This document shows, piece by piece, positions 1,570 to 6,069 of a stretch of 64,000 bases of DNA. Every line of letters begins with the position of its first letter. Position 1 is the first letter of the stretch. The DNA is from a virus (lineage: Duplodnaviria > Caudoviricetes), in the IMG/VR virus record IMGVR_UViG_3300042914_002678; one strand, written 5' to 3'. Below the pieces are notes generated by a model. The model was not told the DNA's origin. It did no database searches and worked only from the letters and a program-made list of their open reading frames with translations. A program made the position numbers and the translations under genes.

Positions 1570-2580
1570 ATGACTGCTTCAATCGCTTCACGCCGTTCTG
1601 GCGAAAACCTCTGGGAACAATTTTGCCAGTGGGTAACTTCAACTGATAATCGTCTTTATGTCGGCTGGTTCGGAGTCCTCATGATTCCTTGCCTTCTTGC
1701 TGCTACGACTTGTTTCATCATCGCATTCATCGGTGCTCCCCCTGTGGACATTGATGGTATCCGTGAACCCGTTGCTGGTTCACTCATGTACGGAAACAAC
1801 ATCATCTCTGGTGCTGTGATTCCTTCGTCCAACGCAATTGGACTGCACTTTTATCCAATCTGGGAAGCTGCTTCCCTAGATGAGTGGCTGTACAACGGTG
1901 GTCCTTTCCAACTGGTTGTCTTCCACTTCCTGATTGGTATCTACGCTTATATGGGTCGTGAGTGGGAACTTTCTTACCGTCTAGGTATGCGTCCTTGGAT
2001 CTGCGTTGCATATTCTGCACCTGTTGCTGCTGCTTCTGCCGTATTCCTGGTCTATCCTTTCGGTCAAGGTTCTTTCTCTGACGCTATGCCTCTTGGCATC
2101 TCTGGTACTTTCAACTACATGCTTGTGTTCCAGGCAGAGCACAACATCCTGATGCACCCCTTCCACATGCTTGGTGTGGCTGGTGTGTTCGGCGGCAGCC
2201 TGTTCTCCGCCATGCACGGCTCGCTAGTGACCTCCTCCCTGGTGCGTGAAACCACCGAGAGCGAGTCCCAGAACTACGGCTACAAGTTCGGTCAAGAAGA
2301 AGAGACTTATAACATCGTTGCTGCTCATGGTTATTTCGGACGCCTTATTTTCCAATATGCCTCGTTCAACAACTCTCGTTCACTTCACTTCTTCCTTGCT
2401 GCTTGGCCTGTAGTTGGTATCTGGTTCACTGCTCTTGGTGTTAGCACCATGGCATTCAACCTCAACGGTTTCAACTTCAACCAGTCCATTATCGACTCAC
2501 AAGGTCGTGTGCTCAACACTTGGGCTGATGTTCTGAACCGTGCTGGACTCGGATTAGAGGTGATGCACGAACGCAACGCT
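1570..2580 (+). CDS. psbA: Photosystem II D1, exon 1 (337 codons)
   Basis: Canonical D1 sequence up to EVMHERNA, after which homology breaks. Confidence 0.97.
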
Positions 2581-2789
2581 CGATTTGTGGGCGCCCTTGC
2601 CTGAAAAGACAAGGTAAACTTCGGATGAATTGCTGGAAACCCTAACGGGCAATCAGCAGCCAAGCCCTAGACGCTTCTAGGGAAGGTTCAGAGACTAGGT
2701 GGTTTCCCAAGCGTGGGATGTAATACACCAATAGCGTCCGACACCTAACCTCATAAAGAGTATGGTGAAGATATAGTCCAAACTGGAAG
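2581..2789 (+). mobile_element. Group I self-splicing intron in psbA, 209 nt, no internal ORF
   Basis: 5' exon ends in U and the intron ends in G; P AATTGCTGGAAA (2628-2639), Q AATCAGCAG (2651-2659), R GTTCAGAGACTA (2686-2697), S AAGATATAGTCC (2768-2779); P3 TCGGATG/CGTCCGA; removal restores D1 in frame. Confidence 0.95.
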
Positions 2790-2861
2790 CACAACTTCCC
2801 ACTTGACCTTGCAGCAGCAGAAGCAACCCCAGTTGCTCTTACTGCTCCCGCAATCGGTTAA
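2790..2861 (+). CDS. psbA: Photosystem II D1, exon 2
   Basis: HNFPLDLAAAEATPVALTAPAIG*, giving a spliced D1 of 360 aa. Confidence 0.97.
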   Translation, partial: HNFPLDLAAAEATPVALTAPAIG

Positions 2862-2868
2862 TAAAATT

Positions 2869-2894
2869 AGAGACCCTCACGGGTCTCTTTTTTT
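2869..2894 (+). terminator. psbA terminator
   Basis: AGAGACCC-TCAC-GGGTCTCT followed by a T run. Confidence 0.85.
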
Positions 2895-2913
2895 ATGCTA
2901 TAATGTATAAATA
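2895..2913 (+). promoter_or_regulatory. Extended -10 plus T4 late promoter for the endonuclease gene
   Basis: TGcTATAAT immediately followed by TATAAATA (2906-2913). Confidence 0.65.
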
Positions 2914-2939
2914 ATGTAGTAGAGACAGCAGCAGTAAGA

Positions 2940-3515
2940 ATGAAACATAAACATCATATTGTTCCAAGACATATGGGTGGAACTGACGACCCATCAAATC
3001 TTATTGAACTGACTGTGGAAGAACACGCAGAGGCACACAGAAAGTTATGGGAGCAATATGGTAATATCAAAGATTATTGTGCTTGGAAAGGTTTAGAAGG
3101 AACCATTGGTAAAGAAGAAATCGTAAGGTTGCTGATGGACCCAACTGGAAGAGTTCATACAGAAGAAACCAAACAAAAAATTAGTCAATCACATAAAGGT
3201 AAATTGAAGCATACAGAAGAGAGTAAAGAAAAGTTGAGACAGTTTAGAACTGGTATGAAGTTGAGTGAAGAGCATAAGGCAAAAATATCAAAGAGTTTAG
3301 AAGGTAATACTTATATGGTTGGTAAAAAATTGAGTGATGAGACGAAGAAGAAAATAAGTGAGGCAGGTAAAGGTAATAAGAGAGCATCTGGTCCGCATAA
3401 TATTAGCGAAGAGGCAAAAAGAAATAGAAGTGAAGCAACAAAGGAAAGATGGAGACAATATAGAATATCAAAAGGACTTGACCCAGATAAAACTATTGAT
3501 GCACGATATAGATGA
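2940..3515 (+). CDS. Free-standing HNH homing endonuclease with NUMOD3 DNA-binding repeats
   Basis: N-terminal HHIVPRHMGGTDDPSNLIELTVEEHAEAH; repeats HTEETKQKISQSHKG, HTEESKEKL, LSEEHKAKISKSLEG and LSDETKKKISEAGKG. Confidence 0.88.
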   Translation: MKHKHHIVPRHMGGTDDPSNLIELTVEEHAEAHRKLWEQYGNIKDYCAWKGLEGTIGKEEIVRLLMDPTGRVHTEETKQKISQSHKGKLKHTEESKEKLRQFRTGMKLSEEHKAKISKSLEGNTYMVGKKLSDETKKKISEAGKGNKRASGPHNISEEAKRNRSEATKERWRQYRISKGLDPDKTIDARYR

Positions 3516-3528
3516 GTAGAAATTCCTA

Positions 3529-3557
3529 TTGACCTATTTTGTAAAGTATTGTAAACT
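3529..3557 (+). promoter_or_regulatory. psbD promoter overlapped by an HLR1 (RpaB) box
   Basis: TTGACC-17-TAAACT; the minus strand of 3538-3555 reads TTTACAAT-AC-TTTACAAA, matching (G/T)TTACA(T/A)(T/A)-N2 repeated twice. Confidence 0.7.
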
Positions 3558-3583
3558 AAATATGAGAAACGATAATGGAGGTT

Positions 3584-4645
3584 ATGACTTCTTCTACTCT
3601 TTCACTGCCGAACCAACAAAAAGGTTGGTTTGATTTACTTGATGATTGGTTGAAGCGTGATAGGTTTGTGTTCGTTGGATGGAGTGGTTTATTGCTCTTT
3701 CCTTGTGCCTATCTTGCTCTTGGTGGATGGTTAACTGGAACGACATTTGTTACAAGTTGGTATACACACGGTATTGCTTCCAGTTATTTGGAAGGTTGCA
3801 ATTTTTTAACGTCTGCGGTAAGCACCCCAGCAGACGCTATGGGTCATTCTCTTCTTCTTCTCTGGGGTCCTGAAGCTCAGGGGGATATCGTCAGGTGGTT
3901 CCAACTTGGGGGACTCTGGCCTTTTGTGGCACTCCACGGGGCTTTCGCTCTAATCGGATTCATGCTTCGTCAGTTTGAGATTGCTCGTTTGGTAGGTATC
4001 CGTCCTTACAACGCAATCGCATTCTCTGGTCCTATTGCCGTATTTGTTTCAGTATTTCTAATGTATCCACTGGGTCAATCCAGCTGGTTCTTTGCTCCCT
4101 CCTTTGGTGTCGCAGCAATCTTCAGGTTCCTTCTGTTTCTTCAGGGTTTCCATAACTGGACTCTCAACCCCTTCCATATGATGGGAGTTGCTGGTATACT
4201 GGGAGGAGCACTACTCTGTGCGATTCACGGAGCAACTGTAGAAAACACACTTTATGAAGACAGTGATCAATCAAACACTTTCAAAGCATTTGAACCTACA
4301 CAGGAAGAAGAAACGTATTCAATGGTTACTGCAAACCGATTCTGGTCACAGATATTTGGTATTGCTTTTAGTAACAAGCGTTGGTTGCATTTCTTCATGC
4401 TATTTGTTCCTGTCATGGGTCTTTGGACTTCCAGCATTGGTATCATTGGTCTTGCCCTTAATCTACGTGCTTACGATTTTGTAAGTCAGGAGATTCGTGC
4501 TGCTGAAGACCCGGAATTTGAGACATTTTACACAAAAAATATACTTCTTAATGAGGGGTTAAGAGCGTGGATGGCACCTGTTGATCAGCCAGGGGAACGA
4601 TTTGTCTTTCCCGAGGAAGTTCTACCGAGAGGCAACGCACTCTAA
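3584..4645 (+). CDS. psbD: Photosystem II D2
   Basis: Canonical D2 from [21 protein letters not shown] to [10 protein letters not shown]; GGAGG RBS favours the ATG at 3584 over 3575. Confidence 0.97.
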
Positions 4646-5697: not shown

Positions 5698-6069
5698 ATG
5701 AATATTCTCCAGTCGCCTCAAGACTACTTGTTCAATTTACAGACAACAAGTTCATCTGAAGCAAAACGATTATGGAGAAAGCAGATAAAAGAAAGTTGGA
5801 GTCATAAATGTGCTTACTGTAACTCCGAAGAAAATTTAACATTAGATCACGTTGTTCCACAATCAAAAGGTGGTTTAGATATTACAAGAAATGTAGTATG
5901 CTGTTGCCATTCTTGTAATCAATCTAAAGGTCATGAGTATTGGAAGTTATGGTATGTCCAACAAGACTTTTATAATGAAGATAGTTTGAATAAAATAGAA
6001 GACTGGATGAAACCTCCATTACCAACAAATCTTTACAGTTATCGTCCAAGAAGGAATAATGCTTCATGA
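5698..6069 (+). CDS. HNH endonuclease (McrA/HNH_5-like)
   Basis: CAYC...LTLDHVVPQSKGG...NVVCCCHSCNQSKG; start moved to the ATG at 5698. Confidence 0.85.
   Translation: MNILQSPQDYLFNLQTTSSSEAKRLWRKQIKESWSHKCAYCNSEENLTLDHVVPQSKGGLDITRNVVCCCHSCNQSKGHEYWKLWYVQQDFYNEDSLNKIEDWMKPPLPTNLYSYRPRRNNAS

Follow-up and report, generated by a model that had tools for sequence, protein, structure and literature searches.

A group I intron in psbA and a neighbouring MobE-like HNH gene in a lake cyanophage: probably independent selfish elements juxtaposed by recombination

The psbA intron of phage S-PM2 and the free-standing nuclease F-CphI are described as a collaborative homing pair (Zeng et al. 2009, as related in PMC6083498 and PMC5931967). 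In phage T4 the free-standing HNH enzyme MobE nicks the downstream nrdB gene at nucleotides 122–126, beside a conserved block, and confers mobility in trans on an intron close by (PMC2790892). Nuclease turnover has been proposed to explain arrangements of an intron with a free-standing homing endonuclease gene (HEG) (Barth et al. 2023, PMC10448857). An arrangement of this kind is present in the 64,000-nucleotide stretch of viral DNA analyzed here (Duplodnaviria; Caudoviricetes; IMG/VR record IMGVR_UViG_3300042914_002678) and referred to as the window. In this stretch a group I intron without an open reading frame (ORF) lies near the 3' end of psbA and is followed by a terminator, a free-standing gene for a nuclease with an HNH motif and NUMOD3 repeats, and psbD; all the parts named in the original prediction for this locus are thus present. 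That prediction proposed that a different nuclease architecture may have converged on the S-PM2 partnership at the intron site, a proposal that sits poorly with the data below, as intron and HNH gene fail to co-occur across genomes and the HNH gene is linked to psbD rather than to the 3' end of psbA. The two are probably independent selfish elements juxtaposed by recombination, a psbD-targeting HNH gene having come to stand beside an intron orphaned from its usual Endo VII-type partner.

The layout of the window locus (terminator, TATAAATA, free-standing nuclease gene, psbD) is that of S-PM2, and relatives of the window intron precede F-CphI homologs in other contigs (in L087 a 123-residue Endo VII-type protein with a PF02945 match, 36% identical to F-CphI; in L089 a homolog, 81% identical). 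Unlike in S-PM2, the window nuclease is of another family and does not co-occur with the intron across genomes, and the insertion site lies 6 nt further downstream, so that the predicted parallel with F-CphI "at this position" holds for the gene slot but not for the intron site. With T4 the locus shares a homologous free-standing HNH enzyme (34% identity to MobE) encoded between two conserved genes, a putative target towards the 5' end of the downstream gene, beside an invariant block and with linked polymorphisms in the carrier allele, and an ORF-less or defunct group I intron within co-conversion distance. Unlike at the T4 locus, the window intron interrupts psbA, the upstream gene, with the nuclease gene standing between it and the putative target, and has usual nuclease partners of its own in other phages; the HNH gene has a late-type promoter whereas mobE is promoterless, and its target is placed in psbD by linkage rather than by mapping. 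As in the HEG islands of Barth et al. 2023 (PMC10448857), several unrelated nuclease genes, in tandem at some loci, occupy one slot beside a gene that is essential or conserved, and mark the boundaries of exchanged tracts; unlike there, turnover is here seen directly as population polymorphism. The features of the locus are as follows.

1570–2580, + strand: psbA exon 1, encoding D1 residues 1–337 in its own numbering and ending ...HERNA, last base U (ORF list, spliced translation)
2581–2789, + strand: group I intron of 209 nt without an ORF (Rfam RF00028)
2790–2861, + strand: psbA exon 2, HNFPLDLAAAEATPVALTAPAIG and stop (sequence, spliced translation)
2869–2876/2881–2888 (stem), + strand: intrinsic terminator of psbA, loop TCAC, T-run 2888–2894 (terminator scan)
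2899–2904 and 2906–2913, + strand: promoter-like signals of the nuclease gene, a -10-like TATAAT and a T4-late-type TATAAATA (sequence, pattern search)
2940–3515, + strand: intact free-standing gene for a MobE-like protein of 191 aa with an HNH motif and three NUMOD3 stretches (Pfam, PHROG, MobE homology)
3529–3557, + strand: promoter-like site of psbD, sigma-70-like TTGACC-17-TAAACT, kept in relatives without the HNH gene (promoter scan)
3584–4645, + strand: psbD (D2), likely start ATG at 3584 after GGAGG (ORF list, alignment of relatives)
2536–2913, + strand: intron tract of 378 nt, 100% identical to L087 (pairwise identity profile)
2896–3880, + strand: HNH tract (mismatch maps against L195–L197, L199 and L200)
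3605–3836, + strand: HNH-linked haplotype of the psbD 5' end (fixation index, Fst, and per-site allele frequencies)

Distribution of the intron and of the nuclease genes

The locus was compared with approximately 200 related environmental contigs (L-numbers) from IMG/VR and other Joint Genome Institute (JGI) samples, and its anatomy, homologies, distributions, tract boundaries and linkage were established in this set. Loci carrying the HNH + NUMOD3 gene are referred to as HNH+ and loci without it as HNH-. In a psbD-anchored sample of loci, a choice unbiased for introns and nucleases, an Endo VII gene or a gene of a helix-turn-helix (HTH)-NUMOD3 type lay downstream of every psbA with an intron at the 3' site (13/13) versus 9/47 intronless psbA genes (Fisher p ~1e-7, an indicative value). 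The HNH gene stood beside none of these 13 intron-bearing genes and was found in this sample with intronless psbA only. The window intron itself was found in 24 further contigs, with an Endo VII-type gene downstream in at least 8–9 and an HTH-NUMOD3-type gene in 7. This HNH gene directly downstream of an intron at the window site was a property of the window haplotype only (window, L191, L192 and L193), and other contigs with an intron at this site carried Endo VII/F-CphI-like or HTH-NUMOD3-type genes.

Approximately 25 psbA–psbD spacers contained the HNH gene, which most other spacers of the same group of phages lacked. Some 20 orthologs in IMG/VR, 70–91% identical, all lay between psbA and psbD, and psbA was intronless in each; approximately 12 distinct HNH-bearing alleles had an intronless psbA, including five contigs with the identical protein. 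The exact window protein is encoded by 15 recorded JGI contigs. It stands beside intronless psbA in five samples (L195–L199) and also adjoins a different intron at another psbA site in L194. The co-occurrence of intron and HEG that the original prediction had named as a test is therefore absent, the HNH gene lying mostly beside intronless psbA and the intron mostly beside Endo VII or HTH-NUMOD3 genes. Nucleases of at least three families adjoin one and the same intron tract, and a single nuclease allele is found with three states of psbA (intronless and two different introns). In L105 the order is an Endo VII gene, a remnant of the psbD 5' end and an HNH gene 49% identical to that of the window, and no Endo VII-type or HTH-NUMOD3-type gene was found elsewhere within the 64-kb window.

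The second commonest gene downstream of psbA with a window-type intron encodes a 208-aa protein with an N-terminal HTH and one NUMOD3-like stretch (L086:2951–3574; L090, L096, L101, L109), of which distant forms are found in L102, L103, L121, L126 and L154. This protein may represent a third free-standing nuclease family. Its C-terminal domain looks GIY-YIG/T5orf172-like by eye only, and a nuclease match for the domain was not found in Pfam or PHROG.

The nuclease, the mosaic locus and the intron

By sequence comparison the window nuclease is a MobE-like HNH enzyme and no ortholog of F-CphI. Over 172 aa it shares 34% identity with T4 MobE (E 1e-17), and it matches PHROG 655, annotated "homing endonuclease" (E 2e-20). 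Three NUMOD3 stretches (PF07460, 62 bits) lie C-terminal to the HNH motif, which itself scores 21.1 bits in Pfam, just below the cut-off of 21.4 bits. Within the motif (HHIVPRHMGG..SNL..EEHAEAH) residues H5, H6, N20, H29 and H33 are invariant among 12 homologs, and the catalytic residues and NUMOD3 repeats are kept in homologs 50–91% identical; in metagenomes the HNH-NUMOD3 homologs form approximately 90 protein clusters at ≥65% identity. An AlphaFold2 (AF2) model of moderate confidence (pLDDT 69) places strands at residues 3–6 and 21–24 and a helix at 26–40, the elements to be expected of a beta-beta-alpha metal finger. Foldseek searches of the PDB with this model gave only local matches of 36–40 residues (rmsd ~1 Å, E ≥ 1; colicin E9, pyocin, Cas8-HNH) and phmmer aligned the motif to HNH domains of solved proteins among PDB sequences at E 0.1–0.15, with no significant full-length match found in either search. 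Similarity to F-CphI was undetectable by BLASTP (E = 3), and no PF02945 match was found in the window protein in Pfam, whereas F-CphI scores 91 bits on this family (Endonuclease_7). Membership of different families rules out orthology with F-CphI, and both the predicted difference in architecture and the description of F-CphI as Endo VII-like are borne out.

Identity profiles divide the locus into two tracts. The window and L087 are 100% identical over 2536–2913, a segment that takes in the last 45 nt of exon 1 together with the intron, exon 2, terminator and promoter, with flanks only ~85–90% identical; the match breaks off with the final base of TATAAATA, beyond which L087 has its Endo VII gene. 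Against various backgrounds the left edge of this intron tract falls at 2513, 2527 or 2536. From 2896 to ~3870–3880 the window is ~99.5% identical to L195–L197, L199 and L200, which carry the same nuclease gene beside an intronless psbA; differences are dense to the left of 2896, and on the right they begin at 3874–3880 and become dense from ~3931. Near-identical HNH cassettes are also found in phages whose psbA genes are only ~80% identical. Since the identity tracts to L087 and to the intronless HNH contigs meet at a shared segment, the window is, on the evidence of these profiles, mosaic: an intron tract and an HNH tract abut in the terminator/late-promoter segment that all the cassettes have in common. 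The TATAAATA segment is the left edge common to all nuclease cassettes, and TATAAATA likewise precedes F-CphI in S-PM2 and the Endo VII gene in L087. The nuclease gene had been predicted to have its own promoter, and this was confirmed in so far as the TATAAT-like -10 and the late-type TATAAATA are present, but a promoter scan upstream of the HNH gene found no two-hexamer sigma-70 match. In a pattern search TATAAATA was not enriched in the window (5 copies versus 6.1 expected), the copies at 2906, 7677, 14866, 19567 and 33295 all being on the + strand.

Unusual codons just before the intron (GGA CTC GGA TTA GAG, with Leu where Met is common) had been suggested to add self-protection. They lie inside the 378-nt tract 100% shared with the Endo VII-bearing L087, and the Leu of the encoded GLGLE belongs to an M/L/F polymorphism seen in all locus classes, intronless relatives included. 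The codons came with the intron tract and, because similar codons occur in intronless loci, are no evidence for self-protection; the suggestion was rejected.

The junction of intron and HNH gene is genuine, because it is reproduced by contigs L192 and L193 from separate samples. The JGI contig L191 equals the window, L192 from another JGI sample is 100% identical from 2527, and L193 from a third is identical over 2527–3834 with all 71 differences to the left of this block. An assembly chimera across the ~33-nt terminator/promoter segment common to co-occurring Endo VII- and HNH-type phages would produce such a junction too, and in three lake metagenomes HNH and Endo VII branches both leave position 2913, k=31 unitigs break at 2877–2884 and 2909–2913, and the depths in run X1 would fit an intron tract leading into Endo VII with another terminator variant leading into HNH. 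A chimera is nevertheless highly improbable: assemblies of other JGI samples contain this junction as well (L192, and L193 with a different left part of psbA), assembly k-mers and reads are usually longer than the shared segment, and in runs X1 and X3 window-type exon 2 is attached only to the intron, on unitigs unbranched over 2513–2877 and 2513–2909. Logan contigs from three lake DNA runs neither bridge nor break the junction, as k=31 unitigs stop at the shared 30–33-nt node and the depth balance is ambiguous. Several terminator-loop variants (2877–2880) and both nuclease cassettes (2913/2914) co-exist in the single lake samples X1, X3 and X7 (2020–2024), and the recombining partners therefore share a habitat.

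The intron matches RF00028 with 80.6 bits (E 3.9e-20; gathering score 50). Exon 1 ends in U and the intron in G, and splicing at U2580/G2789 is predicted from the sequence to restore ...EVMHERNA/HNFPLDL..., which places the insertion point between canonical D1 Ala336 and His337. Compensatory changes were found in 15 of the 34 predicted pairs among 22 distinct copies of the family, the U.G pair of P1 being invariant, and the intron looks like a working ribozyme by these features. In one RNA run the spliced joint was absent, the single low-depth contig over the intron/exon-2 border being uninformative on splicing. Copies of the intron are 99.5–100% identical (0–1 difference) while the host exons are only 85–89% identical, and beside near-identical introns the psbA flanks diverge within 12–68 nt on either side. 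Because near-identical introns lie in psbA genes that diverge so close by, the pattern of the family is, as far as sequence can tell, a signature of recent homing with short co-conversion.

Other introns use neighbouring sites. Those of S-PM2 and S-SRM01 splice at HER/NAHNF, between R334 and N335 and 6 nt upstream of the window site, and that of S-CBWM1 at HERNAH/NF, between H337 and N338. The intron of L194 is a different group I intron (Rfam, 56.6 bits) inside the Met331 codon. Four group I intron insertion sites thus fall within 19 nt of psbA (window 2560–2585; L194:555–845; L001:2970–3190; L003:3495–3730), around the codons of D1 residues close to the Mn cluster. The freshwater relatives L086, L088, L105, L106 and L159 have as many as three or four psbA introns, some of them encoding HNH or LAGLIDADG genes, besides the ORF-less intron at the 3' site. 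In L155:2456–2700 the 3' half of an intron is apparently missing and the 5' half runs directly into exon 2; this could be intron decay, which would disrupt psbA, or a misassembly.

Linkage of the HNH gene to psbD

Following the logic used for MobE, a target was sought by comparing loci with and without the HNH gene. Between HNH+ and HNH- loci Fst was 0.32 over psbD nt 31–265 (permutation p 0.0002, again indicative) versus 0.018 downstream. Per-site differences in allele frequency reached 0.9 and stopped abruptly after window position 3836, beside an invariant coding block at 3838–3885. Throughout psbA, Fst between the two groups was -0.02 to 0.08, with values of 0.00–0.04 around the intron site, and some 60-nt alleles of the intron site were identical between HNH+ and HNH- loci. 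The same type of psbD haplotype is carried by L198 and by the HNH relatives of 49% identity. Because linkage of the HNH gene is to the 5' end of psbD and not to psbA, the nuclease most likely targets the neighbouring psbD and not the intron site; psbD alleles had been named as a possible target in the original prediction, and this fits the data. From the linkage and tract ends we infer a mobile unit extending from TATAAATA to approximately psbD nt 260–350, with the target within it. The putative target zone would fall at ~3790–3930, at or just beyond the 3' edge of the haplotype, near codons ~85–115. As a control, Endo VII-bearing intronless loci (n = 7) gave a weak rise of Fst to 0.10–0.15 over the final 350 nt of psbA but none in psbD.

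In the tandem-nuclease loci L021:3204–3350, L105:8027–8098 and L142:1398–1481, a truncated psbD copy limited to the first 25–48 codons separates the HNH cassette from the first nuclease gene. These copies look like the scar of a cassette insertion into psbD.

True collaborative homing, with the HNH enzyme cutting intronless psbA at the boundary of Ala336 and His337 or beside it, the intron giving protection and both spreading together, is quite improbable in view of these values. It would account for the position of the HNH gene immediately after an intron-bearing psbA, in the same slot and with the same terminator and TATAAATA as F-CphI in S-PM2, for the polymorphism of nearby psbA introns among phages with the identical HNH gene (L191–L194 versus L195–L199), and for the occurrence of the intron + HNH block in two psbA backgrounds. 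Precedent also favours it, as a 2009 study by Bonocora and Shub reportedly described collaborative homing with free-standing HNH enzymes in T7-like phages. Against this, most HNH-bearing loci are intronless and the usual neighbours of the intron are other nuclease families. The tract linked to the HNH gene is on the psbD side, and with an Fst of ~0 and shared 60-nt alleles at the intron site a visible basis for self-immunity is absent.

An HNH gene that is inactive (defunct, domesticated or regulatory), its association with psbD being due to common descent and ordinary homologous recombination, is unlikely. The activity of MobE has never been demonstrated in vitro (PMC2790892), the Pfam score of the HNH motif is just under the cut-off, and in some loci the linked psbD haplotype exists without the gene, points which would all suit an inactive protein. 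Conservation of the catalytic residues and NUMOD3 repeats in homologs of 50–91% identity argues otherwise, as do the polymorphic presence of the gene at a single fixed site, tract ends that are sharp and recur at 2896 and ~3840–3930, the remnants of the psbD 5' end that flank the cassette in tandem loci, and near-identical cassettes in phages with psbA genes of only ~80% identity.

In the remainder of the locus, a ferredoxin gene, a small hli-like ORF and a peroxiredoxin gene lie at the start of the window, 5' of psbA, whose exon-1 product is 92–97% identical to cyanophage D1 proteins. Upstream of psbA, a PhotoRC-II RNA motif (Rfam RF01717, 86 bits) is located at 1439–1532 and has the same position in many related contigs. 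A second, unrelated HNH gene (HNH_5) at 5698–6069 follows a gene for a calcineurin-like phosphoesterase, a pair also seen in S-SRM01 and L086.

Proposed turnover of selfish elements between psbA and psbD

Nuclease activities, target sites and the direction of transfer we infer from the patterns described above. If intron and HNH gene are independent elements, the intron would belong to a recently mobile family at the boundary of D1 Ala336 and His337, partnered elsewhere with an Endo VII/F-CphI-like or HTH-NUMOD3 gene, and nucleases of these two kinds are plausible cutters of intronless psbA at the insertion site. The HNH enzyme would nick or cut HNH-less psbD alleles near codons ~85–115, and the carrier genome would be protected by its linked variant haplotype of the psbD 5' end, as for MobE with nrdB. 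Two routes may have brought the elements together. An intron tract of ~370 bp may have been gene-converted from a donor with the intron and Endo VII into an HNH-bearing phage, or homing of the HNH gene may have replaced an Endo VII cassette, with a crossover in the shared terminator/late-promoter segment. The intron, here lacking a cognate nuclease, would then spread only via the nuclease of another phage or by co-conversion (trans homing). In the latter case an HNH break in psbD would co-convert the intron from ~1.05 kb away, the distance between the intron and the putative target, which is within the range of co-conversion in trans homing (up to ~2 kb).

Several observations weigh against the juxtaposition of independent elements or leave its course ambiguous. 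The founding event may have had either direction, the intron coming in or the HNH gene replacing Endo VII, as both fit. The block 2527–3834 is intact in two psbA backgrounds (window and L193), and HNH-driven co-transfer of the intron could also give such a shared block and would imply some functional coupling. The positive control with Endo VII loci gave a weak signal only (n = 7), and the HNH-linked psbD haplotype is found as well in the HNH-less L102, L111, L116 and L123. Linkage to psbD could also stem from shared ancestry or ordinary recombination hotspots, and the contigs are not phylogenetically independent, so that p-values are indicative only.

A wider picture can be offered tentatively. 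The psbA–psbD spacer of lake cyanomyoviruses is possibly an arena in which at least three unrelated nuclease families compete for one slot, those of Endo VII type (and possibly of HTH-NUMOD3 type) aiming at the 3' end of psbA and the MobE-like HNH enzymes at the 5' end of psbD. The window would then represent homing of an HNH gene that evicted a cognate Endo VII gene and left an orphan intron now dependent on trans homing.

Both collaborative homing (S-PM2, T7-like phages) and trans homing (in T4, by MobE) have been described before, and the window alone is no new mechanism. To our knowledge, each of the two is known from only a handful of laboratory phages. The value of the locus lies in a population-level view of nuclease turnover at one intron hotspot, together with testable predictions of cleavage sites, as the sharp ends of exchanged tracts predict where each nuclease cuts. 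The approximately 200 environmental relatives provide a natural snapshot of how intron–nuclease arrangements arise and fall apart, with a bearing on how selfish elements shuffle the photosystem genes carried by cyanophages. Eviction of an Endo VII gene by the HNH gene, if true, would be direct evidence, at the level of populations, that nuclease turnover leads into collaborative homing and out of it again.

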